A stretch of 50,779 bases of DNA, from contig CAYRIH010000001.1 in assembly GCA_964424375.1 (NCBI GenBank), positions 19,577-70,355 on the forward strand. Direction: 5' to 3'. This stretch comes from an uncultured Candidatus Saccharibacteria bacterium (GTDB lineage Bacteria > Patescibacteriota > Kazan-3B-28 > UBA10110). A model generated the notes under the pieces. It saw only the letters and a program-made list of their open reading frames with translations. It ran no database searches and had not been told where the DNA came from. A program made the position numbers and the translations under genes. Below are positions 7,897 to 42,242 of the stretch, piece by piece (position 1 is the stretch's first letter; every line of letters begins with the position of its first letter).

Positions 7897-8124
7897 TCAG
7901 ACAACCAACTGAATAAACACATTAACAAAATGTACACAAATTAAGATTATTCCTACAATGAACACTACCGAACAAAATATAATGACTGAAATTTGAACCT
8001 TGATCCATGTCATTATAGAACTGATATCAGTTATTATGTTGTTGATTAAATATGTTCCAAAACCAACAATAACACCTAACGCAATACTCCCAAGTGTAAA
8101 AATACACCCTAGAGTTAATGACAT
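7897..8124 (-). CDS. small two-helix membrane protein
   Basis: 75 aa, almost entirely hydrophobic. Preceded by AAGGAGATGA and by copy A of the shared promoter/5'UTR module. Confidence 0.5.
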   Translation of the reverse strand: MSLTLGCIFTLGSIALGVIVGFGTYLINNIITDISSIMTWIKVQISVIIFCSVVFIVGIILICVHFVNVFIQLVV

Positions 8125-8127
8125 GAT

Positions 8128-8205
8128 ATCATCTCCTTGTTTTTATTTTCAAGATTACAATGACACTTTAGAATAGAGCAAACCCATACATTTGTATAGG
8201 TTATG
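8128..8205 (-). promoter_or_regulatory. shared promoter/5'UTR module, copy A (contains imperfect palindrome CCTATACAAATGTATGGG)
   Basis: Aligns with 9824-9900 and 10673-10745. The plus-strand core is caaacccatacatttgtatagg at 8179-8200. Confidence 0.6.
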
Positions 8206-8242
8206 TCACCACACTGATATGAAACGCAGGGGAATTGGATAG

Positions 8243-8267
8243 GAAAACGCCCGTATAGAACGGGCGT
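8243..8267 (-). terminator. rho-independent terminator
   Basis: ACGCCCGT-tcta-tACGGGCGT hairpin followed by TTTTC on the minus strand. Confidence 0.6.
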
Positions 8268-8448
8268 AGGCACGATTGGCTATTGTAATGATTCCTTGTG
8301 AACCTTAATGTTCACACGCTGACCATTCGATTTCAGTAGGAGCCACCACACGTAGCTTCGCACAGATAGATGTTTCCACCAGACATAAGGACATACCTCC
8401 TTGTGTTATTGGTGAATAGTTTAAGTATAAACCAAATTTTTGGAATTA

Positions 8449-8470
8449 GAAAACCGCCTTGCGGCGGTTT
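8449..8470 (-). terminator. rho-independent terminator after the PyrE-PyrF fusion gene
   Basis: AAACCGCC-gcaa-GGCGGTTT followed by a T-run on the minus strand. A near-identical hairpin recurs at 9943-9962. Confidence 0.7.
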
Positions 8471-8509
8471 GTCTTTTGAGTCTCAAAAAGTTGTGATGTA
8501 CAAAAGTGC

Positions 8510-9823
8510 TTAGGAGAGTGAGCCCAGCTCTTCGCTCAGGAGACGCCGAACTTCAGCTACTGGGTTATCAGCCCCTAATATCTGCCGTCCCATAACCAGA
8601 TAATTAGAACCATCTTCTATCGCCTGTTCGGGAGTGCCGATTCTCTCCTGGTCACCTGCATCCTCTCCAACAGACCGAATGCCAGGTGTAACCAGCAACA
8701 TTCTTGGATACTTGTTTCTCAGGTCTCCCACCTCTTCAGCTGAACAGACAAGACCCTCTGCACCAGCTCTGTGAGCTATCTCAGCCAGCTTAACTACCTG
8801 ATCTGCCGGCATTCGGGTGTAAATTTCCTCACAGGTCTCCTTATCGATGCTTGTGAGTACTGTCACTACCAGCACCTTAGTGCCAACCGGCCTGAGGGTA
8901 TCCACTACAGTCTTAATCATCTTTTCGCCGCCTGATCCATGAACTGTGACCGCCCAGGGCGGGCAAGCTAACAGTCTGCTGGCGATATTGCCAACTGTGT
9001 TGGAAATGTCATGGATTTTTAGGTCTACCATGACTCGACCGTAGGTATGAAGCCGAGGGAGGAGATAATCAATACCTTGATCAAGGAGAAGATCATTGAC
9101 TTTAAGTATACATCCAGTAGTTCTCAAGGAATCGATGATAGGCAGAATTGTCTCCCAGTTTCTACCATCAAGCGCCACAATAATCGGGTTTTTCTCTTCC
9201 ATCTCTGGATCACACCGCTGCATGACTCCTAGGGTCTGAATGAGATGCCGACGCACATCATCCAGAGTCATACCGGCCCAAACTGGCAGTTGAATTCCCT
9301 GACTAGACAGCAGTTCTCGCCAGCCTTGCTGGCGATCAACTAAAACAACTAGCCCTTCAGTCCTGAGTCCCAACTCGAGACATTTCCGGTAGGGAACGAT
9401 CTTGGACTCACCATTAGTGATTACATCATCCATAATGATGACTCGATCGCCTCTTCTGGCTTTGCCGATAACTTTGGCATCAGCAACTCGTCCCTCCTTG
9501 GCCTGACCCCGAATCGTAAGATACGGAGTTTCCGTATTTACAGATAATGGGCCAGCAAAACAAGAAACCGAATCAGGCACCTCGACGAACCCGTCTACTC
9601 TTAGATACTTCAGAGGTAGAGCAAAAAGACCAGCAATAAAACTGATGGCTTCAGGGTGATTACGAGCATCCCTGAGATTGATGTAGACATCAGTCGTTCC
9701 CCCACTTTTCAGGGGCAGCTCCCGTCGGTTGTCAAACTTGAGTAAATCAAACCTTAAGAGCTGTTCGACAATTCCTGCCTGTTCATCTGGGAACAGCCAG
9801 GGTGATGAGGGTATAATCCTCAT
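8510..9823 (-). CDS. bifunctional orotate phosphoribosyltransferase / OMP decarboxylase fusion (UMP-synthase-like)
   Basis: The N-terminal half carries the PRTase signature VIIMDDVITNGES. The C-terminal half carries OMP-decarboxylase motifs IVALDG, KVNDLL, DLKIHDI, VTPGIR and MGRQI. The start is set at the ATG 8 nt after AAGGAGGT (MRIIPSS); the track ORF starts at 9850. The coding sequence is visibly GC-richer than its neighbours. Confidence 0.85.
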   Translation of the reverse strand: MRIIPSSPWLFPDEQAGIVEQLLRFDLLKFDNRRELPLKSGGTTDVYINLRDARNHPEAISFIAGLFALPLKYLRVDGFVEVPDSVSCFAGPLSVNTETPYLTIRGQAKEGRVADAKVIGKARRGDRVIIMDDVITNGESKIVPYRKCLELGLRTEGLVVLVDRQQGWRELLSSQGIQLPVWAGMTLDDVRRHLIQTLGVMQRCDPEMEEKNPIIVALDGRNWETILPIIDSLRTTGCILKVNDLLLDQGIDYLLPRLHTYGRVMVDLKIHDISNTVGNIASRLLACPPWAVTVHGSGGEKMIKTVVDTLRPVGTKVLVVTVLTSIDKETCEEIYTRMPADQVVKLAEIAHRAGAEGLVCSAEEVGDLRNKYPRMLLVTPGIRSVGEDAGDQERIGTPEQAIEDGSNYLVMGRQILGADNPVAEVRRLLSEELGSLS

Positions 9824-9900
9824 GATATGAAACCTCCTTATAGATTTCAAATAACAGTGATACTTAAGAATAAAACAAACCTAAACATTTGTATAGGTTG
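9824..9900 (-). promoter_or_regulatory. shared promoter/5'UTR module, copy B
   Basis: Plus strand reads ttcaaataacagtgatacttaagaataaaacaaacctaaacatttgtatagg. The minus strand gives TATACA-17-TATTCT, then the UTR, then AAGGAGGT. Confidence 0.6.
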
Positions 9901-24686: not shown

Positions 24687-27600
24687 TTAATCTCTTTCAA
24701 CAATTTTAATTTCTTCTGGAGTAAGATCGTAAAGTTTATAAACTAATTGGTTGATTTGTTTTTCGTATTCTTTGACTTCTTCCTTTTTTGCAGGATTTTT
24801 TAAATAATCGATGGATTTGGTAATTGCCAAGATCTTATCAACAAGGTGCTCTATTTGTTCCACGATGTCTTTGTTGGATGGTGTGATTGGAGGAATTAAA
24901 AGAGGTTCAAGAGCCTGAACACTGACGATTACATCACCCGTGCCAGTTTTAGGAGCTTTATCATAAAGCATTTGATTTCCCAATTTAGAATTCATAAACG
25001 CGCACAAATATTTCAACTCGCTGCCTGTCATAATACAAGTGCTATCCTGACAATACATACTTTCATTATCTAAACCAAAACGAAGCACGGAACCAATTCG
25101 TTTCCACACAACCTTCTCCTTCTTAAATTCATTTAGGTATTCATCTTTGGGATTGTTATCTAATTCAAGCCAGTGATGCTGACCTTCCCCAGTACTGTTT
25201 CTCGAATAACGACATTGTCCACGATTTTTTAGCTTTTCTTCATATTGCGTTAGGTGCTTTAATATCGCTGGAAACTTATTCAGTTCTCTGTGAAATCCAT
25301 ATTTTATCAATATCACCCACAATCCAGCCCATTCATAATCAAAGCGTTTAATATCCCTTCCGCGTAAAATCGGTTTTAAGATTTCTGCACTTCTGGGATC
25401 ATCCGCAACAAGACGATCACGGACTGCTGTATCGATGATAAACGCTTCATTCAGACCTGTTATGACACCACGATAAATATTTACATCCCACTCTTTCAAC
25501 GGTTTACCGATTCGTTCTATTTTTTCTTTTAAGTTCTGCTCAGCCTGATTACCGATAAACCAGGCATCTTCATTCATTTTCGGTAATATGTTTTTATTTT
25601 TATCTATAAAATCAGACAATACCGAATCTTTTACTTCAGTATTAAGTGTTACGCCTGACAACTGACCATAATTATTCCCTTTCTCAATGATAAGAATATT
25701 GGTATCAACTGTGGCAGTTTCGAAAATTCCCGGACCTAAATCAACTAATAAAAGAGGATTGTACGAATTGAAAAGTTTCCTGAGGCTTTTTCCATATCCG
25801 GCTCTCATCCATTTATTACTGGTGATAAAGCAAAGATGTCCGCCGGTTTTCAAAGTATTAATTCCGTTTTCATAAAAAAGAGAATAAATATCGCCAGTGC
25901 GTTCAAAGGATTTATACCCGCAGTTTTTATACATATCAGCCAATTTCCCACCATCTTTTTGAAGTTGAACATAAGGAGGATTACCAATAACCACATCAAA
26001 TCCTTTTTTATCTTCAAAAACATCAATAAATTCCAATTTCCATAGAAAAAATGGTTTTTCTTTTTTGGGATTGTGTAGATTATCTAAAACTTCTTTAATC
26101 TTTGCTTCTGCAAGGAATTTGTCACCCCAAGAAGCCAAATATTTTTCGCGGCTCTTTTGATTCAACATATTGGCTTTAGCTTCCTCATTTTTTCTTTGCG
26201 CCTCCAAATCCTGCTTCCGCTTTTCTAAGGCCAAACGAATCAACCAATCTTTTATATCATTTATTTCTTTTCGCTTTGCTTGTTTTTCTTTATCATCGTG
26301 AATATCAAAATACTCTTTGACGTTCTTTTTAAGTTCAATGATTTTCCTTTGTTTCTTCCTATCAACTAACAAAGCTGTTTGTTGCCCAGTATCTTCACCA
26401 TTATAAAATTTTACACCCTCAAATTCTTCCAAAAGCGAATTGCCACACATTAGCCGATAATCCAAGTTTGGAAGCGGCTCAATATCTTTTAATTCATAAT
26501 CAACTACTAACTGAAGCCAGAGCCGCAATTTGGCGATTTCAATCGCGCCCGGGTCAATGTCTACTCCATAGATACAATTTTGAATAGTTTCCTTTTTTAA
26601 TTCGTATTCTGTTTTTTTCGCAAGTTTTTTAGGATGAAGCATTCGCAAAAGCAGGCGCAGACGGACTATTTCATTAAGCATGCCAACCAAAAAAGCGCCA
26701 GAGCCACAAGCTGGATCACAAACCTTGATATTTTTCAAAAGCTCGTCCAATTCAATCACTTCACCTTCAAAGGCGGCAATAGATTTATTTTCACCTTCAC
26801 GTAAAAATTTAACATATTTTTCCGCCTTCTTTCGTCCAATTTTTGAAGCGGAATCAAGATAATTTATCAAACTTTCTTGGCACATATAATACACAATCTC
26901 TCGCGGGGTGTAATAAGTGCCTTTACCTTTACGTAAATTTTCTGACAGTAAATTTTCAAAGACCTTACCAAGCATTTCCGGATCAATCGCAATTTCTTTA
27001 TCATCCGGGCTTTCTTCTTCAACTGTAAAATTATAACGATCAAAGACTTCAAAAATCGCTTGGAAAATTTTGTCGTCAAGATAAATTGAGCTATCTCTCC
27101 AGTTGTATTCAGCTTCAAAAAGTCCGCCATTTAAAAATGGGATTCGACAATTAAAATCCTTAGAAAAACTGGGATCGACCGAATCACGACGAGGATTATT
27201 TAGGGCATTATAAAATAATTTTTCTAGATAATCATTAAAAAAATTATTTTTGCTATTTTTTGCTTCTCTAAAAAGATTGCTCAAAAAATTCTTATTACCC
27301 TCACCCCATTTGCCACCTTCTGGTACACCTAACCAACCCTTCTTTTGGACGAAATAGAGAAATACAATTTGGCCAAGCAGTTTTTTAGCAAAATTTTCCG
27401 TATTTAATTGGTTTTTTGAAGCTTCATTAAGAAAAGTGTGGTTTTTTGAAAGTTCGTCGAGCAAACTTTCAAAAAGCTTGTGATATTCTAAATAAAATTC
27501 TTTGGTGATTTTTTCAACCGAAAACGCATCTTGTATTTTTTCCAAACTAGAAAAATCACTATCATTGATCCTTTGTAAGAAAGTTTTGTTAGTGAATTCA

Positions 27601-28022
27601 CGACTTACAAAATAAGTAAATCGACGAAAGTTGCTCCACTGGCGGCGAGTGCCAATTGATTTTGGATATATTAACGAGAAACGAAAATTACCACTTGAAT
27701 CATGGAAAATAAAAATGGCGGCCGAATATTGTTGGTTCTCGGCAGATTTTAAGATGTTTTTAGCTTTTTCGTATTGGGCTTTTTTGCCAGCACGTTCAGA
27801 AAGCTCTTGTTTAACTTCAAAAGCACAGATAATAAGACTGTCACCATCAGAAAAATTTATTTCTCCAAGCTTTATACCATTTTTAAAATCATCATCACTA
27901 TAACGAGAATAGTTTTCTTCTTGCGCTATAAATTGTCGGTTTTTCTCACGGAAAAAGCGACCAAATTTAGCAACAGAAAAATCACTTATTACTTTTTCTA
28001 GAACTTGTTTAGCTTCGCTCAT
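24687..28022 (-). CDS. Eco57I/MmeI-like N6-adenine DNA methyltransferase with possible N-terminal PD-ExK nuclease and C-terminal specificity domain (type IIG/IIL-like)
   Basis: Motif I is VCDPACGSGAFL and motif IV is VIGNPPYVQL. Also present are FLNGGLFE, DPEMLGKVFENLL and TYYTPREIV. N-terminal D61-x7-E69-V-K71 resembles the MmeI-type nuclease motif. The start overlaps the helicase stop (ATGA). Confidence 0.85.
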   Translation of the reverse strand: MSEAKQVLEKVISDFSVAKFGRFFREKNRQFIAQEENYSRYSDDDFKNGIKLGEINFSDGDSLIICAFEVKQELSERAGKKAQYEKAKNILKSAENQQYSAAIFIFHDSSGNFRFSLIYPKSIGTRRQWSNFRRFTYFVSREFTNKTFLQRINDSDFSSLEKIQDAFSVEKITKEFYLEYHKLFESLLDELSKNHTFLNEASKNQLNTENFAKKLLGQIVFLYFVQKKGWLGVPEGGKWGEGNKNFLSNLFREAKNSKNNFFNDYLEKLFYNALNNPRRDSVDPSFSKDFNCRIPFLNGGLFEAEYNWRDSSIYLDDKIFQAIFEVFDRYNFTVEEESPDDKEIAIDPEMLGKVFENLLSENLRKGKGTYYTPREIVYYMCQESLINYLDSASKIGRKKAEKYVKFLREGENKSIAAFEGEVIELDELLKNIKVCDPACGSGAFLVGMLNEIVRLRLLLRMLHPKKLAKKTEYELKKETIQNCIYGVDIDPGAIEIAKLRLWLQLVVDYELKDIEPLPNLDYRLMCGNSLLEEFEGVKFYNGEDTGQQTALLVDRKKQRKIIELKKNVKEYFDIHDDKEKQAKRKEINDIKDWLIRLALEKRKQDLEAQRKNEEAKANMLNQKSREKYLASWGDKFLAEAKIKEVLDNLHNPKKEKPFFLWKLEFIDVFEDKKGFDVVIGNPPYVQLQKDGGKLADMYKNCGYKSFERTGDIYSLFYENGINTLKTGGHLCFITSNKWMRAGYGKSLRKLFNSYNPLLLVDLGPGIFETATVDTNILIIEKGNNYGQLSGVTLNTEVKDSVLSDFIDKNKNILPKMNEDAWFIGNQAEQNLKEKIERIGKPLKEWDVNIYRGVITGLNEAFIIDTAVRDRLVADDPRSAEILKPILRGRDIKRFDYEWAGLWVILIKYGFHRELNKFPAILKHLTQYEEKLKNRGQCRYSRNSTGEGQHHWLELDNNPKDEYLNEFKKEKVVWKRIGSVLRFGLDNESMYCQDSTCIMTGSELKYLCAFMNSKLGNQMLYDKAPKTGTGDVIVSVQALEPLLIPPITPSNKDIVEQIEHLVDKILAITKSIDYLKNPAKKEEVKEYEKQINQLVYKLYDLTPEEIKIVERD

Positions 28023-31000
28023 AGTTTTTTATTCTCTATAGCTATAATGATTTCCTTTTTATGATCTTTCTGCCGATTCTTTTCTTTAATTAAATAATCT
28101 TCGCCCAACTCATTTCTTAATTCCAAAATGTCTTTAATTAAATTCTCTTTAAAGTTACCAATCCGGCGCAAAGTATAATCTGCCAAAGTACCATAACTTA
28201 AAATATCTTCTTTTAGAGTGCGGAGGAAGCCTTTGCTTGGCATTAACTCTTCTTTAGTATTTTTAATTAGAAAGTCAAGGTTATTTAATGCTTTCATTTC
28301 CAGGCTCTGCTCGCTATTTGGACCCAAGCGATAATCTTTAAATTCTTGTATTGCATGGTAGGCTTCCCAGAACTGCCCCGTATTCCAATTAAGTGATTTT
28401 TCATCGGATGAACAAACAATTTTATCAAACACATCCTCAAATGTAGTCTGATATGGCTCGATCTTTTCTGCATCTGTCTTAACCCCACTTATATACAAAC
28501 GCCCTTTTTTGAAAAATACCAGAAGTTCGTTATTACGATATTTTTTAGCAACTTTAATGCGAGGTGGATAATTTTCAAGGCTTTCGATTAATTCGGGGTT
28601 CCTTTTTTTAATCTTCAAAAATTCTTTAAGGGCCTTAGTATAAAAACTTTCTTTTTCTTTTTCGTCTGGATTTTGCTGCACACGATTAAATAAACCAGCT
28701 GGAGTTGGCTCTTCGTCTATGTCAAAAATCTTTGAATCTTCACCAAGCGCGGTATGGATAAGAAACATTTTATTGGCAGCAATTTCGCGAGATTGCACCA
28801 GTTGAGCACCTTGTTCGGTTGGGAAAAAATTCACTATATAAAGCTTGTTAAAAACTTTTTTACTAATACGGTTGATGCGCCCAAGTCGCTGAATAACACG
28901 CACTGGATTCCAAGGAATGTCATAGTTGATAACCATGCCAGCTCTATTTAGATTAAAGCCTTCAGAAATCTTGTCTGAAGAAAGGAGGAGCATAAAATCA
29001 TTATTTTGATCTTTGTAAGAAGCATCAAAATTTTTGTTTATTTGATCAATTTTTGAACCTGATAAATTACCAGCAACAACCAACATTTTATCGCCATAAT
29101 GTTTTTCTAGTGCCTTTTCCAAATAGTGTACAGTATCAACATATTCGGTAAAGATAATAATTTTACGCTTGGGTTCACCATTGTTTGGCTTTTTAGCATA
29201 TTCTTTTTTGAGATGCTCAATCAGACAAATGGTCTTGGGATCATTTTTTACTAGATCTAATTTTGAAAGCTTAGCCAAAATTTCATCAAATAATTCAAGA
29301 TCGGATTGAATATCGGCAATAAACTGGTCTTTGAGTGTAAATGAATCTAATTTGTAACGTTTATGGTTTTTGGGATATTCTCCTTTATTTATCTTTTCTT
29401 CATATTCAAGCAGATATTTTTCAATTTCGTCAGCATCTAGTTCGTAAATTTTTTCCAAAAGAGCACGATCTAATATATACTCGCCGGTTTTATTGATAAA
29501 CTTCTGGCTATTTTCAGTTATTTTTTTGAAATTCTTAATACTTTGCTCAAATGATCCAAAGGAGCTTTCAAAACGCTTAACTAACAAGCGACGCATAAAA
29601 TCAAATAAGTTGCGCTGTTGTACAAATTGAAAATTCTCTTTTTCGGTTAATTTTTCTTCGCTGATTTTTTTTGCACCAACTTCGTACTCAAACGGACGAT
29701 AAATTGCACCTTGAAAACGGCTACCCTCGTCAGGATCACCAAAATAGTTTTCAAGTATTTCTGTATAGAAATCGGATTGCTCTTTGCTTAATTCAAAAAA
29801 CCATTCTTGAGGATTAGCTACTTCTGAGAGTTCTTTCACTTCATTCTTATAATCAGGATTATTTTGCAGATCTAAGCGATTACGTCGGATGGTCACTGGT
29901 TCAATTACATTTCTGATTTGTTTAGCAAGATAACGCGCTCTTTGCGCTACTTTTTTAAGATCAATTTTGTCTTCTTCAAATAACGCTTTGTAGTAATTTT
30001 GAGCTTTATTTTTTTTCATACCATCAGGTGAATTCCTATATTTCTTAATATAGCCAAGCCGATCAAAAACACCTTTAAACCCTTTGAATTGATCGACAAG
30101 ATTGCTTTCTAAGGTAATGGAAGATTTTTTGGGGGTAATAAACAACTTAAGAAGCGAAAGAATGTCGCCGGGACGATTATTAAACGGGGTAGCTGTTAGC
30201 AAAACAACTTGTTTATCTCGACAGATGTTTTTTAGAAGTTCGTAGTCCTTTGTGTCTTGATTTCTAAACCAATGAACCTCATCAATTATTACTATTTCAA
30301 TATCCTGAGTTTTTGCAATGAAATCATTCAGTTTGTCTAAATCACCACGTGACCACACCTCCCAATCATAAAGACCGAACTGTTCTTTGTACTTGTTCCA
30401 ACCAGAGTCTTTTTTCCTTGGGTCCCCCTTTATTCCAGGTGGGCAAATGATTACACCGCGTTTTTTAAGTTGTTTTGCTACAGCGCAAGCGATAATAGTT
30501 TTCCCCAAACCTACAACATCAGCAATTATAACTCCTTTATCTTTTTCCATTATGGTGAGTGCTTGCCCTACGGCATCGAGTTGATACCGGTACGGCGTAT
30601 AACCGTTTTCTTCTAAAGTTTTTATCAAAGAATCACTAATTTCCCCTTGCTTAAATGAATCTAGGTAAGTTTTTAATACCAAACAAAAAGCTTCAAATGG
30701 CGAGATATCTTTAATAAGTGTTTCTTTTTCAATTACTTCGACAAGTTTCTTTTTAGTGTCATCATATTCGGTGATTTTTACGGCTTCGTCCCAAAGATCA
30801 TCAAAATATTTTTCTGCATCATCAAATCCATAATCTCCAATCTCCACGTTAAATTCGTTCTGAGTGCAAAGACCAGCTTTTGTCAGATTGCTACTACCAG
30901 TTATGAATAAATTTTTTCTACCTACTTGGCTTTGCTCTAACTTAAAAAGGTATAGTTTGGCGTGATTAGGTTCATAGGTTTTGCGAATGATTAGTTTATC

Positions 31001-31354
31001 TTTTTGAATCAACTTAATGAAAAATTTCACTTGCTCATAAAACTCTTTAGTATCAAAATTTTCTGTATTTAGAGATTTCTTTACAGATTCAATAAATTTA
31101 TAAGTTTTTTCCTCGTCTGATAGTTGTTCGTTCTCGGAAAATTCAATCAACCCAAAATTAGAACGATCAATATTTAACCCCACCAAAACTTTAGTGATAA
31201 TTTTTGGGTTTGATTTTAATCCTTTATAAAGCTCTTTGATTCCAGAAAAATAAAAAAATCCGACAAGAAATTTTAATTCTTCGCTTTTTTTAATAAGTTC
31301 AAGCAAGCGCTCTTTTAAATCACCTGTCTCGTTGTTTGTTATAAAATTAGGCAT
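28019..31354 (-). CDS. SNF2/SF2 helicase with N-terminal phospholipase-D (HKD) nuclease domain
   Basis: The HKD-like motif is NHAKLYLF...ITGSSNLTKAGL. Helicase motif I is VVGLGKTI, motif II is IIDEVHWFRN, and motif III is LLTATPFNN. Motifs V and VI are SEGFNLNRAGMVINYD and QRLGRINR. Confidence 0.85.
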   Translation of the reverse strand: MPNFITNNETGDLKERLLELIKKSEELKFLVGFFYFSGIKELYKGLKSNPKIITKVLVGLNIDRSNFGLIEFSENEQLSDEEKTYKFIESVKKSLNTENFDTKEFYEQVKFFIKLIQKDKLIIRKTYEPNHAKLYLFKLEQSQVGRKNLFITGSSNLTKAGLCTQNEFNVEIGDYGFDDAEKYFDDLWDEAVKITEYDDTKKKLVEVIEKETLIKDISPFEAFCLVLKTYLDSFKQGEISDSLIKTLEENGYTPYRYQLDAVGQALTIMEKDKGVIIADVVGLGKTIIACAVAKQLKKRGVIICPPGIKGDPRKKDSGWNKYKEQFGLYDWEVWSRGDLDKLNDFIAKTQDIEIVIIDEVHWFRNQDTKDYELLKNICRDKQVVLLTATPFNNRPGDILSLLKLFITPKKSSITLESNLVDQFKGFKGVFDRLGYIKKYRNSPDGMKKNKAQNYYKALFEEDKIDLKKVAQRARYLAKQIRNVIEPVTIRRNRLDLQNNPDYKNEVKELSEVANPQEWFFELSKEQSDFYTEILENYFGDPDEGSRFQGAIYRPFEYEVGAKKISEEKLTEKENFQFVQQRNLFDFMRRLLVKRFESSFGSFEQSIKNFKKITENSQKFINKTGEYILDRALLEKIYELDADEIEKYLLEYEEKINKGEYPKNHKRYKLDSFTLKDQFIADIQSDLELFDEILAKLSKLDLVKNDPKTICLIEHLKKEYAKKPNNGEPKRKIIIFTEYVDTVHYLEKALEKHYGDKMLVVAGNLSGSKIDQINKNFDASYKDQNNDFMLLLSSDKISEGFNLNRAGMVINYDIPWNPVRVIQRLGRINRISKKVFNKLYIVNFFPTEQGAQLVQSREIAANKMFLIHTALGEDSKIFDIDEEPTPAGLFNRVQQNPDEKEKESFYTKALKEFLKIKKRNPELIESLENYPPRIKVAKKYRNNELLVFFKKGRLYISGVKTDAEKIEPYQTTFEDVFDKIVCSSDEKSLNWNTGQFWEAYHAIQEFKDYRLGPNSEQSLEMKALNNLDFLIKNTKEELMPSKGFLRTLKEDILSYGTLADYTLRRIGNFKENLIKDILELRNELGEDYLIKEKNRQKDHKKEIIIAIENKKL

Positions 31355-31386
31355 ATTTTAGTTATTAAATAACTAATAATACCCTG

Positions 31387-31457
31387 ATTATACCCTATTC
31401 GGATATTCAGGGCTCTGAAAAAGCATTATTTCTAAACGGCTCACCCATGAGCCGTTT
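31387..31457. repeat. degenerate copy of the island intergenic module (GGGTATAAT box plus AAACGGCTCA..TGAGCCGTTT hairpin)
   Basis: Reads attataccc ... ttcagggctctgaaaaagcattatttctaaacggctcacccatgagccgttt. Confidence 0.5.
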
Positions 31458-31639
31458 AAATTTTTGTCCTAACAAGCTTTCTTGTGAAAAGAAGCTGTTG
31501 AACAAAACCAAACAACGACCACACATCGCTGTCTGACATTTCTTCTATATGTTTCTGTATATCCGAGCTAAGATTCATGGCCGCATTATAGCAGCCCGAT
31601 AGTTATTCAAACAAAAAAGACACTCCGACATCTAGGGCG

Positions 31640-33535
31640 TTACACTAAAGACACATATCTTTTCAGCTCATTTATGTTGTTTGGTTTAGATTGCGCAGTA
31701 TAATCTAACTTTTTACAAACATCCATAATCTTTACAATAAATCTATCAAACTCCACCGTAGTCATCGAGATGTTCCCATCTGCATCTTTAATGCTTGTTT
31801 GCCATACAGAGCCGATATCAAGTGGCGGCTGAGGTCTGTGGCCACTAACATTAAAGATTTTATGATCTTGTTTTGTAATCCAACCAGCTCCAACTTCTGC
31901 TACAGCCCCCCATGAAGTAGCCATCTCATTACTGGTGATATAAAGTACTAATATTTTTTTATCAGAATAACTATCGACAAAAAAATCTCTTAAATAATCA
32001 AAAACACCCGTGACGGCTTCAGGAATTCGTGCTCCCTCATTATCACAATTAGTATAAATAATGTCTTCGTCTAAAAAACCATTAAACGAAAGCATCTTAT
32101 AAACAATGTCTGCCAACGGTTTATCCGCTAAAGTGTGACTGATAAGTATTTGTTTTTTCTGTGCGTCCACTTTTGTCTTCAAGCCAAGAAGAGGAAGTGC
32201 GGCATTCATTTCACTTTTGACAATTTTCTCAATATTTTCAATTTTTTTCTGTCCAATCAATTTTACAATTTTTCCAGCTGCAATTTGAGAAGCGACATTT
32301 CTATATTTATCCACTCTCTTTCTCAATTCCTCTTCATCATGTTTTTGACGTTCTTGTTTTCCCTCATCCCGAATCTTCTTAAGGTGATCAGCATAAATCT
32401 CTCGCATAGCCACAATACGTGGGAGTAAACTATTCCTAACGTGTCCAACAACAAATTGATACCTTGGATCTTCAGTCTTATAACCCTGCCGGTTACTTAA
32501 AGCCATATCAGGTAGTTCTGTTTCTTCAAAAAGATCAACATGGAGCTGACCCACTATATAAACCTCTGGAAGTCTATTTTTACCCACAAGAGGGATAATA
32601 TTATATTCACCAAGCTTGCCATTAGAAAGCAATGAAATAAAGTTATCCGGGAAATCGCCAGGATTTTTCTTTCTATCCCGAGTTGTTCTGTAAGCGCCTA
32701 TCCAACCTTTAATCTCCAAATTATATGGTTTTTCTTCTCCCTGTTTGTTTTTAAGAATTAATGAGGTAGTAATGGGCATCTCTGTCTTCAAAAGTTTCTC
32801 CTCGATATTTCCTTTTTTTGGTAATAGAGAATCAAAATGAACAGCAAGATGTTTATAATCCTCCCCTAAAGTTATTAAAGCACCTAGTCCTTGAACCATT
32901 TCTTTGTCAAATGAATCCACCGTGATCTCCGCGGCATCGGTGATGATATGAATTTTAAACTTTTCGTTTACGAGAGGAAAAATTTTTAAAAGATTTTTCT
33001 TAATTGCAGCAACAGTCTTATGCATTCCATATTGGGGATTTGTCATTACTATTGAGGTGCCTTTAGCAGAAACTCGTTCAAATTTTATAGCTTCGTCACT
33101 TAAAGGTTTTAATTGATGGTCTTTCCCAACATGACGAGATAAAACAAATCCAGATTTTTCTCCATTCTTTACAGTTATCACCAAAACATTCTCTGAAACT
33201 GCAAGAGCGGCTAGTTTGCCTATTCCCTTTCTACCAATTTTTCTACGACGCCCGTCTTCGGTGTAAGAGTCTTTTTCTGTAATACGAGTTTCAACCGCAA
33301 CATTTAAATATTTTTTTATATCCCCTGTTTGATATGACATTCCAGATCCATCATCTTCAACAATTATTTTATTCTTTTTCTGAATTATATAAACATTGGA
33401 CGCATTGGCATCATATGAGTTAGCTATAAGTTCTGCCAAAACAAAATAAATGTTTGTATACAAACTTGGTCCTAATAATTCTAAAATTCTTGGATTAATG
33501 TTGATTTTGTATTCGCGATCACTCGGTTTATTCAT
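31640..33535 (-). CDS. GHKL (HATPase_c_3/MORC-like) ATPase fused to a C-terminal TIR-like domain
   Basis: The N box is ELIANSYDA, the G1 box is EDDGSGMS and the G2 box is GRKGIGKLA. The last ~170 aa read ILISHTLADKPLADIVYKMLSFNGF...ILVLYITSNEMATSWGAVAEVGAGW, a TIR/DUF1863-like pattern. The start is set at the ATG that overlaps the dcm stop (ATGA at 33532-33535); the track ORF starts at 33619. Confidence 0.7.
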   Translation of the reverse strand: MNKPSDREYKININPRILELLGPSLYTNIYFVLAELIANSYDANASNVYIIQKKNKIIVEDDGSGMSYQTGDIKKYLNVAVETRITEKDSYTEDGRRRKIGRKGIGKLAALAVSENVLVITVKNGEKSGFVLSRHVGKDHQLKPLSDEAIKFERVSAKGTSIVMTNPQYGMHKTVAAIKKNLLKIFPLVNEKFKIHIITDAAEITVDSFDKEMVQGLGALITLGEDYKHLAVHFDSLLPKKGNIEEKLLKTEMPITTSLILKNKQGEEKPYNLEIKGWIGAYRTTRDRKKNPGDFPDNFISLLSNGKLGEYNIIPLVGKNRLPEVYIVGQLHVDLFEETELPDMALSNRQGYKTEDPRYQFVVGHVRNSLLPRIVAMREIYADHLKKIRDEGKQERQKHDEEELRKRVDKYRNVASQIAAGKIVKLIGQKKIENIEKIVKSEMNAALPLLGLKTKVDAQKKQILISHTLADKPLADIVYKMLSFNGFLDEDIIYTNCDNEGARIPEAVTGVFDYLRDFFVDSYSDKKILVLYITSNEMATSWGAVAEVGAGWITKQDHKIFNVSGHRPQPPLDIGSVWQTSIKDADGNISMTTVEFDRFIVKIMDVCKKLDYTAQSKPNNINELKRYVSLV

Positions 33536-34572
33536 AGGACGTTCATTACATGTTCTATAATAGTTTTCCCAATAACTTGACCTAATACAGGTGGCACCGC
33601 ATTCCCTATATGCCGACAAAGTTGTGTCATTGGCAAATCTCCAAATTCGTATGAAATCGGGAATGTCTGTAATAATGCGCCCTCTCTCAACGAGATTGCA
33701 CGATCTTGCTCGGGATGTCCAAATCGTCCAGAACCATAACTAGCAAACTGTGTCGTAATTGTAGGTGATACATTATCCCAACTCATACGCCCATATACAG
33801 AAGTATATGTTTGTCCACTATCTTTTTGATAACATGCAGGCAATATTTTTTTGGCCCAATCTTTCCATGATCCACCTGGTTTTGATTGCTTAATACGTTT
33901 TAAATTGATTGGAATCAAACTTTTTGCTTGATGCATTTTGTCTTCTTCATGCCTCTGCCCAGCTTTTAGACTTGGAAGTAGTTTTATGGTATCGCCTACC
34001 GTTACATAATTCTCTTTTGAGTGTGTTGTTTCTGGGACTTTAATATTCCCAAGTTTTGAAGCAAGTAAGATGAGTCTACTTCTGTTCTGTGGCACTCCAT
34101 AATCTGGAGCATAAACAACATCAAAATCAACTTTATATTTCATCTTTTTCAGTTGTGTCACAAAGTTCTTAAAAACATTAGTTTTAATTACTCCTCGAAC
34201 ATTCTCCATTGAAACCACTTCTGGTTTGATAATCTGAATTGCACGCACAAAATGATCTAGGAGGTTCCATCTCTCATCTTTTTCGTTATTGTGCAGTTTA
34301 TGTGTATGTGCCGAAAATGGTTGACACGGAGCACAACCGACAAGAACTTTAACGCCTGATTTCGAATATATATTTTTTAACTCCCTAAAATCATATGTTG
34401 AAACATCTGTCAGTATAAACTTGGCATTATTGTTTTTTTCATATGTGACAGCACATGATTTATCATTATCAAGACCAGCTAGAACATGAATACCCGCTTT
34501 TCTAAGCCCATAAGTCAGCCCACCAATTCCACTAAATAAGTCAATTGCCTCAATTTTTAATTTTTTTTTCAT
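33532..34572 (-). CDS. dcm: DNA (cytosine-5)-methyltransferase
   Basis: Motif I is DLFSGIGG, motif IV is GCAPCQPFS, motif VI is ENVRG, motif VIII is QNRSRL and motif X is GNAVPP. Confidence 0.93.
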   Translation of the reverse strand: MKKKLKIEAIDLFSGIGGLTYGLRKAGIHVLAGLDNDKSCAVTYEKNNNAKFILTDVSTYDFRELKNIYSKSGVKVLVGCAPCQPFSAHTHKLHNNEKDERWNLLDHFVRAIQIIKPEVVSMENVRGVIKTNVFKNFVTQLKKMKYKVDFDVVYAPDYGVPQNRSRLILLASKLGNIKVPETTHSKENYVTVGDTIKLLPSLKAGQRHEEDKMHQAKSLIPINLKRIKQSKPGGSWKDWAKKILPACYQKDSGQTYTSVYGRMSWDNVSPTITTQFASYGSGRFGHPEQDRAISLREGALLQTFPISYEFGDLPMTQLCRHIGNAVPPVLGQVIGKTIIEHVMNVL

Positions 34573-34681
34573 AAATCTATTTTACACAAACATCTCCTGC
34601 ATTATACCTTTTTTCCATTGCTTGGCTTGGGTGATTTGTTGTTGTTTTGATTTTATTAAATCATCGGGCAATAATACCTCA

Positions 34682-34758
34682 ATTATACCCTAAATTAAAA
34701 ACTAACTTTCAGAGCTATTTTTATCCTGTTTATTCAACGGCTCATCCATGAGCCGTTG
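34682..34758. repeat. island intergenic module, copy E1
   Basis: Reads attataccctaaattaaaaactaactttcagagctatttttatcctgtttattcaacggctcatccatgagccgttg. Confidence 0.85.
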
Positions 34759-34868
34759 AAACTTTTATCTTAATTTATACAAAAATCAAAAGTAAGCTGT
34801 AAAAACGCGGTCGTGTTTTTATAACTCATCCTAGAACTGTCTTTATCTTATTTATTGTTATCTATCTA

Positions 34869-35324
34869 CTATTTACACTGAAAATTATTGGTTATATAAA
34901 CAGCTACATATTGCTTCAATTCATCGAAAGAAGCACTCTTGTTCCTTGTTTTGTCGCTGACATAATATGCAATATCTTTTAACTTGAAACCCTCACTGGG
35001 AACCACATACTCATAACCATTTAGCTCCATAAAATATGCTAAAACCATAAAAGCCAGCCTTTTGTTGCCATTACTAAAAAGATGTCTTTCAATAATTGTC
35101 GTGAATAAATAAGCAGCTTTATCGAAAATAGTTGGATAATATTCATCATTTTTAATGAAATCTAAAAATGGGGTCATATTACCCTTATCCTCCTTGCGAT
35201 AATCAGGAAGAGGTTCATTATCAGAATCTACATCCAAGGTGACCTCTACCAATCTAAAAATAATGAAATGAACATCCTTCTCGGAAATATATTTAATTTC
35301 TTGAGAGTTCAGAAAGCTCGTCAT
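34869..35324 (-). CDS. doc: Doc (death-on-curing) family Fic-fold toxin
   Basis: Doc signature HLFSNGNKRLAF (HxFx[DN]GNKR). Confidence 0.85.
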   Translation of the reverse strand: MTSFLNSQEIKYISEKDVHFIIFRLVEVTLDVDSDNEPLPDYRKEDKGNMTPFLDFIKNDEYYPTIFDKAAYLFTTIIERHLFSNGNKRLAFMVLAYFMELNGYEYVVPSEGFKLKDIAYYVSDKTRNKSASFDELKQYVAVYITNNFQCK

Positions 35325-35490
35325 TATACCGACTATATGTTTTATCTACAAATTTACTAACAGCTCTGCTCTTTTGAGGATTATTTTTTACGGATTTCAC
35401 AACATCTCTAGATACATAATGATACGCATCAGTTTTTTTTCTGCGTGAATTAAAATTAAACAAGTTTCCTATAATCTTTCGAATGCTCAT
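35293..35490 (-). CDS. small basic protein, putative cognate antitoxin of Doc
   Basis: 65 aa, immediately upstream of doc and overlapping it by 32 nt. No recognisable Phd/YefM motif. Confidence 0.4.
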   Translation of the reverse strand: MSIRKIIGNLFNFNSRRKKTDAYHYVSRDVVKSVKNNPQKSRAVSKFVDKTYSRYNDELSELSRN

Positions 35491-35614: not shown

Positions 35615-35698
35615 ATTATACCCTAAATCCCTGGCCACAAACGTCCTACGGGCAGGCAAAAACTAACTTTCAGAGCTATTTTTATCCTATTTCTTCAA
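35615..35698. repeat. island intergenic module, copy E2 (carries a 29-nt GC-rich insertion; core overlaps the stop of the peptidase gene)
   Basis: Reads attataccctaaat[ccctggccacaaacgtcctacgggcaggc]aaaaactaactttcagagctatttttatcctatttcttcaa. Confidence 0.85.
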
Positions 35699-36311: not shown

Positions 36312-36317
36312 AAATCA

Positions 36318-36392
36318 ATTATACCCTAAATTAAAAACTAACTTTCAGAGCTATTTTTATCCTATTTATTCAATGGCTCACATGAGCTGTTG
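36318..36392. repeat. island intergenic module, copy E3
   Basis: Reads attataccctaaattaaaaactaactttcagagctatttttatcctatttattcaatggctcacatgagctgttg. Confidence 0.85.
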
Positions 36393-36414
36393 AAGAATAA
36401 GGTATAATTTAGGT

Positions 36415-37269
36415 ATGGAGATAAAAGTAAAGGCAGTAGCAGATAAACGCATATTCTGTTTATATGCCGCTTTAAATGCTACAGTTTATGATAAAGAAAA
36501 TGCCGAGGCAATGCATTCGCTTCGCTTAAAAGTACGAGATTATTTAAATAGTAGAGATTTATTATTAGGAGAGTTAAAACAACTTTTTGCCAAGTACCCA
36601 GAAGAATTTTATTATCGTTTTCGTCATTGGATATTAAGTCATGGCAATCCGCCGGAGTTTAAAGAAATTAATAATTTTTGGAAATGTAATAGTTTAAGAG
36701 ATTTAGATAGATTTAAAGAATTGTTGCGAGACTTCTGGAATCAAAGCCAAATCGAGAAATTATGGCAGGAATTTAGTATTGAATATAAATCTGCAATTAA
36801 AGAAGCACAAAAAAATGGGGAGATTGCGGTTAAACAAGTAACAGATTATTTAAATATAGAAAATTTGAATATAGAGAAGTTGATAATTATTCCGAATTTG
36901 TTAGATAGTTACAACATTGGGTTAGGACCTACAGTTAATAAAACTGCCTATGCTATTTTGGGTCCTTCACAAAATGGGTTTTCTGTGCCTCGCATCGAAC
37001 ATGAATTATTGCATTCGATTATTAATCCATTAACAGAAGATTTTAATAAACAAAAAAGGTCAAAACTGCGAGAATATATTATTAGAGCAATAGTGTTGAG
37101 GCTAAATAAAGATAATCAAAGATACTACAAAGAATCAAAACAAAAATTAATTGATAAAGAATACATTTATATTGACGATTTTTTAAATAATTTAGAGATA
37201 TTTGAAAAGAGTAAACAACCATTTAACAAGTATTTTAAACACTGGTTATTGAATATCCAGCTTGATTAA
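36415..37269 (+). CDS. HExxH-motif protein (putative zinc metallopeptidase) heading the RiPP operon
   Basis: 284 aa with IEHELLHSI as the only HExxH motif. Same strand as the radical-SAM gene and 70 nt upstream of it. Confidence 0.55.
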   Translation: MEIKVKAVADKRIFCLYAALNATVYDKENAEAMHSLRLKVRDYLNSRDLLLGELKQLFAKYPEEFYYRFRHWILSHGNPPEFKEINNFWKCNSLRDLDRFKELLRDFWNQSQIEKLWQEFSIEYKSAIKEAQKNGEIAVKQVTDYLNIENLNIEKLIIIPNLLDSYNIGLGPTVNKTAYAILGPSQNGFSVPRIEHELLHSIINPLTEDFNKQKRSKLREYIIRAIVLRLNKDNQRYYKESKQKLIDKEYIYIDDFLNNLEIFEKSKQPFNKYFKHWLLNIQLD

Positions 37270-37344
37270 TTAGCTCTGGTAGCGTATAATATTGTTAGTA
37301 CCTTAAAATCATTTAATCTCTATAGAAGGAGGTGACCTTTGAAC

Positions 37345-38631
37345 ATGGAGATAAAAACTGAGTTGATACGGGACACTATTGTCGTTCATGGTCCTGATGC
37401 TGTTTATTTGTATGCACAGTCTACACAACAGGTAGCCCGAGTGCGTGAATTGACCATGACTATTAAAAATAATCTAACTAATAAGGGTTTTTTTAATATG
37501 GTTCCCAGGTCAATGCGGTATCGCCCTCCAAGGAAGTGGAAAAGTTTAATGTTGCTTTTGGCTAAAGATTGTCCACTTAAATGCAGATATTGTTATGCCC
37601 ATGGAGGTAGCAACAATGAGATGATGAGTCCAGAGGTCGCCAATAGAGCAGTTGCTGTTTATCTTGCTACTCAACCAAAGAACCCTAGGGTAATTTTGTT
37701 TGGTGGTGGTGAACCAGCAATGAACATTCCAGCCATTAAGCATATTGTTAATAAGTATGGTACGAGTATCAAGTGGCACATGACAACTTCTGGGGTGATG
37801 TCTCAATCGTTTTTGCGATGGTTGATAGAACATGAAGTGGGAATGACTATTTCTATTGATGGACCACCAGACATTCAAAATGATTTGCGTCCCCTGCGTG
37901 GAGGTGGTGCTTCAGCACCGATTGTTGAGCAGACCATTAGAACACTGGCAATGGAGTCCAATAGGAGAGTTAGTCTAAGGGCAACCATTACTCGTAGTAC
38001 ACTCTGGGAGATGAGTCGGATTTTAGACTATTTCAGTGAGTTGGGAGCAAAAACAGTTCATATTGAGAGGGTTTATTCTCTTGGACGAGCGTTAAAGGAT
38101 AATTCAGATAACTTAAGCCCATTAAATTTATCTGAGATGGTAGAGATGGCAACGCTTGGATTGGACTGGGCAAAGACAACTGGAAAACGTCTCAAAATAG
38201 GTGGTTTGACATATTTATTAAACCCTCGCATTTCCCATTATTGTGGGGCAATGTCAGGACAAAGTATGGTTGTTAACCATTTAGGACAACTTACGAGTTG
38301 TAGTGAAGTTGTTGATGATCAGACAAAAGAGTGGTCACTTTTCCAATTAGGCTATATTGACAAGCATAGCCAAGTACATTTGGATGAACAAAAACTTGTT
38401 CATTCTCAGCATCGCGTGGTTACTAACATGGAAGCATGTAAATCATGCTTTGCTAGATACTTATGTAGAGGAGGTTGTGCTCATAAGGCATGGGCAGTGA
38501 CAGGTGATATTTTTACACCAGATCCTCAGCACTGTCAATTCATTCGTGCAATTATTCCTATTTTGATTCAGCGCATGGTCGATCAGCATTATCCTCAGTT
38601 GAGGAAATCTAAAGAAAGGATGGTGCAATAA
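37345..38631 (+). CDS. radical SAM enzyme with C-terminal SPASM domain (peptide-modifying maturase type)
   Basis: CPLKCRYCYA CxxxCxxC cluster motif, GGGEP, and SPASM cysteines CGAMSG...C...CKSCFARYLCRGGCAHKAW. The GGAGGTG Shine-Dalgarno lies 10 nt before ATG 37345; the track uses TTG 37339. Confidence 0.85.
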   Translation: MEIKTELIRDTIVVHGPDAVYLYAQSTQQVARVRELTMTIKNNLTNKGFFNMVPRSMRYRPPRKWKSLMLLLAKDCPLKCRYCYAHGGSNNEMMSPEVANRAVAVYLATQPKNPRVILFGGGEPAMNIPAIKHIVNKYGTSIKWHMTTSGVMSQSFLRWLIEHEVGMTISIDGPPDIQNDLRPLRGGGASAPIVEQTIRTLAMESNRRVSLRATITRSTLWEMSRILDYFSELGAKTVHIERVYSLGRALKDNSDNLSPLNLSEMVEMATLGLDWAKTTGKRLKIGGLTYLLNPRISHYCGAMSGQSMVVNHLGQLTSCSEVVDDQTKEWSLFQLGYIDKHSQVHLDEQKLVHSQHRVVTNMEACKSCFARYLCRGGCAHKAWAVTGDIFTPDPQHCQFIRAIIPILIQRMVDQHYPQLRKSKERMVQ

Positions 38632-39524: not shown

Positions 39525-39601
39525 TCTTATTCACCTCCAAATCAAGGAGCATCAGAGCCCCTGTTGATACTTAAAGTATATTCTAACTACACTTTAGTGT
39601 C

Positions 39602-39685
39602 AAAAAACTACCTTTCAGAGCTATTTTTATCTTATTTATTCAACAAAGAATTTTTGTATAAACTACTGGATTATGAGAAAATAAT
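39602..39685. repeat. island intergenic module, long form, copy E4
   Basis: Reads aaaaaactacctttcagagctatttttatcttatttattcaacaaagaatttttgtataaactactggattatgagaaaat. It matches 42161-42242 at most positions. Confidence 0.8.
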
Positions 39686-42135: not shown

Positions 42136-42160
42136 AACTCCCTAACTCCTGACCAGGTAA

Positions 42161-42242
42161 ACAAAACTGACTTTCAGGGTTATTTTTATCCTATTTCTTA
42201 AACAAAGAATTTTTGTATAAACTGTTGGATTATGAGAAAATT
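42161..42242. repeat. island intergenic module, long form, copy E5
   Basis: Reads acaaaactgactttcagggttatttttatcctatttcttaaacaaagaatttttgtataaactgttggattatgagaaaatt. Confidence 0.8.

Follow-up and report, generated by a model that had tools for sequence, protein, structure and literature searches.

A DNA cytosine-5 methyltransferase paired with a GHKL ATPase that carries an SpbK-like TIR domain: a candidate restriction–modification-like module acting on NAD+

Two overlapping genes and their products

We analysed a stretch of DNA of 50,779 nt (hereafter, the window) from an uncultured Candidatus Saccharibacteria bacterium (contig CAYRIH010000001.1, positions 19,577 to 70,355). Two adjacent genes on its minus strand encode a DNA cytosine-5 methyltransferase (Dcm; 346 aa, 33532..34572) and a protein of 631 aa (31640..33535, stop codon included) that joins a GHKL ATPase domain, an S5-type domain, a helical linker and a TIR domain in one polypeptide and is called ATPase-TIR below. 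The TGA stop codon of the Dcm gene (33534-33532) and the ATG start codon of the ATPase-TIR gene (33535-33533) share the letters ATGA (33532..33535), an overlap that suggests translational coupling of the two genes. As in type II restriction–modification (RM) systems, a methyltransferase gene here adjoins the gene in the restriction position, as seen both from this overlap and from a linkage that is conserved in other genomes. We read the pair as a candidate RM-like defence module in which the TIR domain would be the effector.

Dcm matched the Pfam family DNA_methylase (PF00145) with an E-value of 1.6e-62 over profile positions 2-323 of 324, scored 150.7 bits against TIGR00675 dcm (cut-off 100.65) and matched the PADLOC models MTase_II and DrmMII with E-values of 4.9e-92 and 7e-90, respectively. 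Motifs I (DLFSGIGG), IV (GCAPCQPFS), VI (ENV), VIII (QNRSR) and X (GNAVPP) can be read in its translation. Dcm is presumed to be the self-marking component of the pair.

The mechanically called open reading frame (ORF) of ATPase-TIR begins at a TTG codon (33619) and would give 659 aa, but homologues in other species start where the ATG codon lies, and the TTG-initiated version was therefore rejected in favour of 631 aa. The full-length AlphaFold2 (AF2) model had a predicted local distance difference test score (pLDDT) of 79.9. Residues ~1-170 (33026..33535, minus strand) form the GHKL (Bergerat-fold) ATPase domain, in which residues 30-148 matched Pfam HATPase_c_3 (1.1e-19) and the N, G1 and G2 boxes read ELIANSYDA, DDGSGM and GRKGIGKLA. 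Residue invariance was scored over 81 sequences from different species, and the N box (E35, N39, D42), G1 box (D61, G63, G65) and G2 box (G101, G104, G106, K107) residues were identical in all of them.

Residues ~171-356 (32468..33025, minus strand) correspond to an S5-type transducer or middle domain, a region shared with the HgiDII family described below. In a Foldseek search, ~400 columns of the full-length model were aligned with the N-terminal 40 kDa fragment of MutL (LN40), MORC2/3, the 43 kDa fragment of GyrB and Hsp90, on the basis of which we assigned residues ~1-356 to the GHKL ATPase and S5-type domains. Within the S5-type domain, the loop S347-N-R-Q-G-Y-K353 has R349, Q350 and K353 invariant and is a candidate ATP-sensing lysine loop. 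The helical linker that follows (residues 357-450, ~95 residues; 32186..32467, minus strand) consists of two helices in the AF2 secondary structure, 357-427 and 432-450, and is probably a coiled coil or a stalk that may serve dimerisation. The C-terminal TIR domain spans residues 460-631 (31643..32158, minus strand).

A preliminary description of the locus, made from the sequence alone, had proposed a canonical Dcm with motifs I, IV, VI, VIII and X, the ATGA overlap at 33532-33535, a partner of 631 aa and the three Bergerat-fold boxes. Each of these was borne out by the above matches, homologue start positions and invariant residues, all of its domain calls (Dcm, GHKL and TIR) were right, and we add to them that both genes lie on the minus strand.

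An SpbK-like TIR domain in the place of a restriction-enzyme C-terminus

The TIR domain was identified from both sequence and fold. The PADLOC model of SpbK, a defence protein encoded by the Bacillus subtilis element ICEBs1, matched residues 430-563 of ATPase-TIR with an E-value of 2e-15, and a phmmer search against the PDB returned SpbK (9phb) at 5.5e-4. When residues 460-631 were modelled alone by AF2, a TIR fold was obtained with a pLDDT of 84.9, and its top PDB match in Foldseek was the SpbK TIR filament (E-value 7.5e-8, target-normalised template modelling score 0.74), followed by SPARTA TIR-APAZ, Hydra TRR-2, MyD88, a B. cereus TIR and RPP1. Taken together, the sequence matches and the modelled fold confirmed the placement of this domain in the SpbK-like TIR clade. 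A distant relative of the same architecture (P0213) matched Pfam TIR_2 at 29.5 bits, above the gathering score, and Thoeris ThsB at 6.8e-12.

We then transferred the residues of SpbK by the phmmer alignment, taking the SpbK numbering from residues named in the published study (PMC12847820). Glu547 of ATPase-TIR (codon 31895..31897, minus strand) is equivalent to SpbK E192, and G549 and W552 align with G194 and W197, the residues of the symmetric helix that forms the dimer interface. E547, G549, A550 and W552, as well as D471 and K472 near the start of the domain, were invariant in 81/81 sequences. Given that the catalytic-type residues of both GHKL and TIR are invariant across this set, we concluded that both enzymatic modules are under purifying selection. 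SpbK is an NADase that depends on self-association, and its E192 lies in the NAD+ (nicotinamide adenine dinucleotide) site of an AlphaFold 3 model (PMC12847820). The SpbK substitutions N191R, G194R and W197A abolish both NADase activity and defence, filament formation is lost as well when the G194/W197 helix interface is mutated, and the products include N1-cADPR (a cyclic ADP-ribose, cADPR) as well as ADP-ribose (ADPR) (PMC12847820). The TIR fold proposed for residues ~460-631 in the preliminary description was recovered by structure prediction, and the catalytic Glu that it had left to be located is E547.

The N-terminal two-thirds of ATPase-TIR led to a different family. NCBIfam NF050001, which represents the BbrUII/HgiDII restriction enzymes, matched residues 9-437 with an E-value of 1.2e-60 over profile positions 1-408 of 659; the score of 205.8 bits lies below the 550-bit cut-off, so that full-length membership of this family does not apply. 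A profile search of 1.84 billion representative proteins for relatives of ATPase-TIR gave matches that split into three tiers. The first comprised ~30 full-length representatives of the GHKL-S5-TIR family, and the second comprised TIR-bearing proteins of 680-720 aa, some of them with an extra Cys-rich tail at the C-terminus (P0172, P0175, P0197, P0213). The third comprised true HgiDII-family members (P0217, P0219, P0221, P0225) that scored 620-734 bits on NF050001 and matched the GHKL-S5-TIR profile only over residues 4-394.

The remaining C-terminal region of the HgiDII-family members, ~270 aa with an invariant R-x-D...E-L-K signature, has no counterpart in ATPase-TIR. Judged by eye from this motif, it is apparently a PD-(D/E)xK nuclease; Pfam and PDB profile searches of the region gave no match. 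We considered whether it could be a divergent TIR domain and rejected this, since the GHKL-S5-TIR profile does not reach it and a comparison of the TIR family with the HgiDII C-termini by hhalign gave a probability of 0.6%. In ATPase-TIR itself, no nuclease domain was found by Pfam, NCBIfam, PADLOC or fold search, Pfam and PADLOC found no C-terminal DUF4263 PD-(D/E)xK nuclease of the Shedu type, and residues 460-631 show no evident metal-binding motif of a nuclease.

The methyltransferase partners link the two families. The gene immediately upstream of P0217, the sole HgiDII-family member looked up, encodes a Dcm 49% identical to that of the window. The Dcm partners within the GHKL-S5-TIR family are themselves 42-59% identical, so that the Dcm of P0217 is equally close, whereas the ATPase modules of the two proteins (residues 9-368 of ATPase-TIR) are only 29% identical. 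The Dcm partners of the second-tier proteins P0172 and P0197, which represent two more divergent GHKL-TIR families, also fall in the orthogroup of the window's Dcm (49-55%). More divergent GHKL-S5-TIR proteins of 680-720 aa with a Cys-rich tail (CxxC...CxxC) were seen paired with this Dcm orthogroup at L086 (823-4497) and L089 (1940-5075), with Vsr present at the former.

On the grounds of N-terminal homology, unrelated C-termini and the 49% identity of the partner Dcm proteins, the effector seems to have been swapped on a shared chassis. The simplest reading of these alignments would be one methylase/GHKL chassis with interchangeable C-terminal effectors, either nuclease or TIR, and it agrees with the suggestion in the preliminary description that an ATPase-TIR effector has replaced the usual restriction nuclease. 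R.HgiDII itself has been recorded as a GHKL domain followed by a C-terminal domain of no assigned family (Orlowski and Bujnicki, PMC2441816).

The same relationship could be taken to mean that the pair restricts in the true sense, its TIR-like domain damaging foreign DNA by acting on nucleic acid as a nuclease, a phosphodiesterase that forms 2',3'-cyclic nucleotide monophosphates or an enzyme that cleaves bases or glycosidic bonds. ATPase-TIR sits in the position of R.HgiDII-type enzymes, which cut DNA (PMC2441816), the tight arrangement of the two genes is classic for RM systems, some of the residues that contact NAD+ in SpbK are not conserved, and Iyer et al. (2008) proposed that the TIR of the paraMORC4 group might be a nuclease or nucleic-acid-binding domain (PMC2292703). 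On the other hand, both the closest homologue of known function and the top structural matches (SpbK and SPARTA) are NADase TIRs, the Glu and helix-interface residues needed for NADase assembly are invariant, and the domain has no evident metal-binding motif of a nuclease. We therefore consider action on nucleic acid unlikely and prefer an NADase role for the TIR domain.

Conservation of the pair and its genomic surroundings

Homologues of ATPase-TIR are numerous, with more than 2,500 clusters at 90% identity in bacteria and archaea. The best 120 homologues listed were all full-length and 54-76% identical, and the closest relatives were found in Patescibacteria. We fetched 80 loci from species-representative genomes, which span Patescibacteria, Woesearchaeota, Altiarchaeales, Bacillota, Bacteroidota, Pseudomonadota, Spirochaetota, Verrucomicrobiota and others. 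An orthologous Dcm (42-59% identity) was linked to the ATPase-TIR gene in at least 65 of them, which answers the survey proposed in the preliminary description as to whether the pairing is conserved elsewhere. In 51 loci the Dcm gene lay immediately upstream on the same strand (36 of these overlapping the partner gene, by estimated start codons), and in 14 more it lay elsewhere in the flank. The pair is therefore not a chance arrangement and recurs in dozens of phyla. Its patchy spread at 50-76% identity among Patescibacteria, archaea, Bacillota, Bacteroidota and Pseudomonadota follows the usual pattern of defence genes that are mobile.

In collections of plasmids and phages, essentially no full-length relative was found, and the sole match was a Listeria chromosome filed as a plasmid. 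This record, of L. monocytogenes FDAARGOS_57, is a 2.9-Mb chromosome in which a Dcm of 351 aa and an ATPase-TIR of 644 aa (47.9% identity) are encoded at NZ_CP030101.1 1893257-1896252 (5928-8923 of the fetched locus L091). Judged from the translations of the neighbouring genes, the pair is located between thiamine-biosynthesis genes and a gene for a glycoside hydrolase resembling 6-phospho-beta-glucosidase.

Dcm aside, Vsr was the only gene found recurring beside the two-gene loci, and no further effector was seen to recur. Vsr accompanied the pair in 37 of the 80 loci and was not found in the window. This association raises the possibility that ATPase-TIR is a MutL-like repair factor that works with Vsr and Dcm in very-short-patch repair rather than in defence, the more so as MutL is established to stimulate Vsr in E. 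coli (discussed in PMC2292703). Such a role is highly improbable, since the window and more than half of the loci lack Vsr, and it would leave unexplained the TIR domain, the homology to restriction enzymes and the patchy, horizontally transferred distribution.

The same neighbourhoods bear on whether the TIR domain destroys NAD+ outright, as we suppose, or serves as a signal generator whose product, a cADPR isomer or related nucleotide, activates an effector encoded elsewhere, in the manner of ThsB in Thoeris. That SpbK makes N1-cADPR besides ADPR, that the distant relative P0213 matches ThsB models and that DrmA, DrmB and DrmC are co-encoded in the DISARM-embedded loci described below would all be compatible with signalling. 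But no receptor gene of the ThsA, SLOG, SAVED or Macro type was seen recurring in the 80 neighbourhoods, which were inspected without a systematic scan by a domain library, and several contigs carry little besides the two or three genes. We regard signalling as improbable and retain direct NAD+ depletion as the preferred role.

In 17 of the 80 species, the ATPase-TIR gene was found inside a class 1 DISARM operon (L028, L031, L041-L047, L060, L061, L063, L067-L070 and L078; ATPase-TIR at ~8001-9880 in most). The gene order was DrmD, a DrmMI-like methylase (1,340-1,510 aa), ATPase-TIR, DrmA, DrmB and DrmC, with 4-nt overlaps. DrmD, DrmA and DrmB were recognised by NCBIfam scores far above the cut-offs (1430, 1508 and 770, respectively) and DrmC by its HKD motif. 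These 17 loci are made up of the 15 loci without a visible Dcm together with L060 and L067, in which an orthologous Dcm was found at the extreme left edge of the flank, followed in L060 by Vsr and then DrmD. Six other DISARM-type loci show only Vsr at the left edge, and Dcm probably lies just beyond the fetched flank in the DISARM-type loci other than L060 and L067.

The proteins encoded in DISARM operons fall inside the two-gene clade, and identity between the two groups reaches 92%. The embedded gene is neither DrmE, as PADLOC gave no DrmE match, nor a replacement of DrmC, which is present in these loci. We found no description of such a DISARM variant in the literature. Another locus (L064, 5664-10175) contains Dcm, Vsr, a 255-aa fragment of the DrmD N-terminus, ATPase-TIR and a 92-aa fragment with the DrmC HKD motif, and looks like a decayed DISARM-type locus.

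In the window, tblastn with the DrmA and DrmB of L042 found neither protein. Downstream of the ATPase-TIR gene lie genes for a PLD(HKD)+SNF2 helicase (1111 aa; 28019-31354, minus strand), which matches the PADLOC 'HKD+Snf2' model (C3a139), and an Eco57I/MmeI-type N6-adenine methylase (1111 aa; 24687-28022, minus strand) that overlaps it by 4 nt, followed by KTSC and NYN genes. The helicase and the methylase show weak, distant similarity to DrmD and the DrmMI-like methylase, respectively.

One could thus regard ATPase-TIR as an accessory subunit of helicase/methylase systems, DISARM elsewhere and the PLD-SNF2/Eco57I-type pair here, with a TIR domain that mainly serves assembly or regulation. 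In 17 species its gene follows the DrmMI-like gene and precedes DrmA, with overlaps of 4 nt and with DrmD, DrmB and DrmC alongside; this arrangement would fit, as would the two distantly related genes downstream in the window. Against it, homologues of the window's helicase and methylase were not found beside the other 63 two-gene loci within flanks of up to 8 kb, and the two operons of the window are parted by a 285-nt gap with a hairpin and a terminator-like site. The nesting of the DISARM-embedded copies within the two-gene clade likewise disfavours a primary accessory role, and a TIR with a purely structural task would hardly be expected to keep its catalytic-type Glu invariant. An accessory role for the protein is accordingly given long odds; we treat the PLD-SNF2/methylase pair as a separate neighbouring system, possibly with a functional affinity.

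The window is chromosomal; one side of it holds dnaX, dnaB, cysS and a gene for a cyclophilin, the opposite side ftsQ and murC. It is AT-rich (GC content 36.5%), and its composition shows no break at the Dcm/ATPase-TIR cassette. An accessory stretch at ~23.6-42.2 kb holds six copies of an ~80-nt intergenic repeat (AATTATACCCTAAATTAAAAACTAACTTTCAGAGCTATTTTTATCCT...AACGGCTCAYCCATGAGCCGTT) between gene cassettes, all in one orientation, at 31360-31458, 34680-34760, 35640-35690, 36315-36400, 39585-39640 and 42145-42200. The Dcm/ATPase-TIR cassette is bracketed by two of these copies, each with a perfect 11-12-bp hairpin. One palindromic hairpin copy (AACGGCTCAYCCATGAGCCGTT; 31433..31458, no strand assigned, RNA fold z-score -3.5) forms the downstream boundary of the cassette, and the second (34733..34760, no strand assigned, z-score -4.1) lies upstream of Dcm within the repeat. 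A terminator-like hairpin with a T-run, a pattern match from a consensus scan, lies ~100 nt downstream of the ATPase-TIR stop codon (31507..31537, minus strand).

The repeats look like terminator- or promoter-type intergenic elements. We also considered an integron cassette array and looked for an integrase on account of the repeated element; none was found among the annotated ORFs of the window.

Immediately upstream of the Dcm cassette, a Doc/Fic-family toxin gene (151 aa; TIGR01550, 2.4e-14) is overlapped by an upstream ORF of 65 aa that has no family match (34869-35490, minus strand), and the two are a probable toxin-antitoxin pair. Farther upstream, genes for a DUF4932-like protein and a radical-SAM/4Fe-4S protein (430 aa) lie on the plus strand (36415-38631), opposite to most genes of the accessory stretch, and may form a small peptide-maturation cluster.

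Proposed mechanism and comparison with known systems

On the basis of the above homologies, we propose that the pair is a two-gene RM-like defence module on an HgiDII/BbrUII chassis, a methylation-guarded NADase that aborts infection, and we put the probability of this reading at about one half. Dcm would mark host DNA with 5-methylcytosine (m5C). The 631-aa protein would take the place of the restriction subunit, its GHKL-S5 part acting as an ATP-driven dimerising clamp on DNA of the MutL/MORC type and its C-terminus carrying an SpbK-type TIR instead of the HgiDII-family nuclease. On unmethylated foreign DNA, ATP-dependent closure or clustering would unite the TIR domains via the helix interface (G549, W552), and the joined domains would form composite NADase sites around E547, as in SpbK. 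The resulting hydrolysis of NAD+ would leave the infected cell unable to support phage or plasmid replication, that is, abortive infection. Our analysis shows which domains are present, their catalytic-type residues, homology to a restriction family with another C-terminus and linkage to one Dcm orthogroup; from these we infer that the protein is an NADase, that DNA or its methylation is the trigger, which site is recognised and that the pair acts in defence.

Several observations weigh against this proposal. Pfam TIR, TIR_2 and DUF1863 do not match ATPase-TIR even at E=10, with the C-terminal and middle regions searched alone, so that the TIR assignment rests on PADLOC, PDB and fold evidence; of the TIR/DUF1863 pattern noted in the preliminary description, the Glu of S.W...E is real and invariant while the DUF1863 label found no match. 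Several positions that contact NAD+ in SpbK differ (S121/S122 to T/L and Y188 to G). Given its embedding in DISARM in 17 species, the gene may in some hosts not form a self-contained system with Dcm. We identified no DNA-recognition element in ATPase-TIR, and in ordinary type II enzymes the site is usually read by the nuclease domain, which is absent here. A lethal NADase set off by any unmethylated site would also be risky for the host.

Nor did palindrome avoidance point clearly to a site. GTCGAC is absent from the window against an expectation of 2.5-5.4, a weak test of avoidance, and CTCGAG was the most depleted palindromic hexamer over the 80 loci, with an observed/expected ratio of 0.44 obtained without a control set. 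We did not adopt a recognition site from these counts; tentatively, the methylation site is probably centred on TCGA, such as GTCGAC. As a separate observation, ACGT (32 occurrences, with 166 expected on base composition) and GTAC (65 occurrences, with 166 expected) are both strongly under-represented in the whole window, and CGTACG, like GTCGAC, is absent from it. These counts suggest pressure from other restriction systems in the host.

More broadly, though tentatively, the family may represent a widespread class of RM systems that restrict by NAD+ depletion rather than DNA cleavage, with the nuclease exchanged for an SpbK-type TIR, and that has also been recruited as an extra effector in class 1 DISARM. 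If the mechanism is true, the family joins the methylation-based self/non-self discrimination of RM with the TIR-mediated NAD+ depletion of abortive infection. The nuclease-bearing HgiDII/BbrUII relatives, whose methylases fall in the same orthogroup, offer a ready-made contrast on one chassis, which makes it a testable question how a GHKL clamp reads DNA or its methylation state and relays this to different effectors. The copies in class 1 DISARM are candidates for the missing effector of DISARM, and Listeria monocytogenes FDAARGOS_57 is a tractable cultured carrier. As far as we found, the sharing of one Dcm orthogroup by the TIR and nuclease versions, the invariance of SpbK-type active-site and interface residues and the recurrent insertion into class 1 DISARM operons are apparently new.

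PADLOC does not call the pair as a system, and we found no experimental study of GHKL-TIR proteins in the literature searched. The remark in the preliminary description that the architecture was not recognised as a named system held for tested systems in PADLOC and this literature, but the architecture itself had already been described as paraMORC4, a GHKL-S5 family that ends in a TIR domain and occurs near cytosine methylases and Vsr in neighbourhoods of the RM type (Iyer, Abhiman and Aravind 2008, Biol Direct 3:8, PMC2292703). ATPase-TIR shares with paraMORC4 the GHKL-S5-TIR architecture, the RM-type neighbourhoods (Dcm, Vsr) and the patchy, laterally mobile distribution. Compared by the published description, the paraMORC4 motif Hx[ST]xD is partly matched: the window reads S466-H-T-L-A-D471-K, with an invariant D471 and K472 but with the S/T placed at +1 instead of +2, and H467 is replaced by Gln in 57 of the 81 sequences, so that the His of the 'ISH' start noted in the preliminary description is not borne out as a conserved feature. 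ATPase-TIR is thus a candidate member of paraMORC4. The 2008 paper was written before the NADase biology of TIR domains was worked out and suggested a role as a nuclease or in ligand binding (PMC2292703).

Among defence systems with a TIR domain, SpbK is the closest to ATPase-TIR by both sequence and fold, with E192, G194 and W197 kept as E547, G549 and W552. Unlike ATPase-TIR, it is a single-gene system of 266 aa without GHKL or methylase, whose small N-terminal domain binds the phage portal protein YonE. SPARTA (short pAgo/TIR-APAZ), which gave the second-best structural matches, likewise couples a nucleic-acid sensor to a TIR NADase activated by oligomerisation, but its sensor is a guide-RNA-loaded Argonaute rather than a GHKL clamp and it has no methylation-based self-marking. 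Thoeris differs in that its effectors have no counterpart here: in the window, ATPase-TIR is surrounded by Dcm, Doc, PLD-SNF2 and a methylase, and no ThsA-type SIR2/SLOG or Macro effector adjoins.

The GHKL-nuclease Shedu protein VcSduA (paraMORC3, Shedu type I-D) also combines a GHKL ATPase with a C-terminal effector, and is a single-polypeptide anti-phage protein for which a model shows two entwined subunits and a middle domain resembling a clamp (PMC12137116). Its effector is a DUF4263 PD-(D/E)xK nuclease, it has no methylase, and it restricts phage directly rather than by abortive infection (PMC12137116).

Class 1 DISARM with DrmMII resembles the window in that Dcm matches the DrmMII model and in that ATPase-TIR occurs in the DISARM-type operons described above. 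The class 1 DISARM of Serratia sp. SCBI is described as having six genes and has the extra m5C methylase DrmMII with the motif MTCGAK (bioRxiv 10.1101/2021.12.28.474362, PMC9142583), given as YMTCGAKR in the second of these papers; the DISARM PLD nuclease is dispensable (PMC9142583). It differs in that the window lacks DrmA and DrmB and in that the Serratia system was described without an ATPase, a word with no occurrence in its text (bioRxiv 10.1101/2021.12.28.474362, PMC9142583).

The HgiDII/BbrUII enzymes (R.HgiDII, GTCGAC) share the homologous GHKL-S5 module, the order of Dcm followed by the ATPase gene with an overlap and, for the member looked up, the orthologous Dcm, and they differ in their ~270-aa D...ELK C-terminus, where the window protein has a TIR domain instead.

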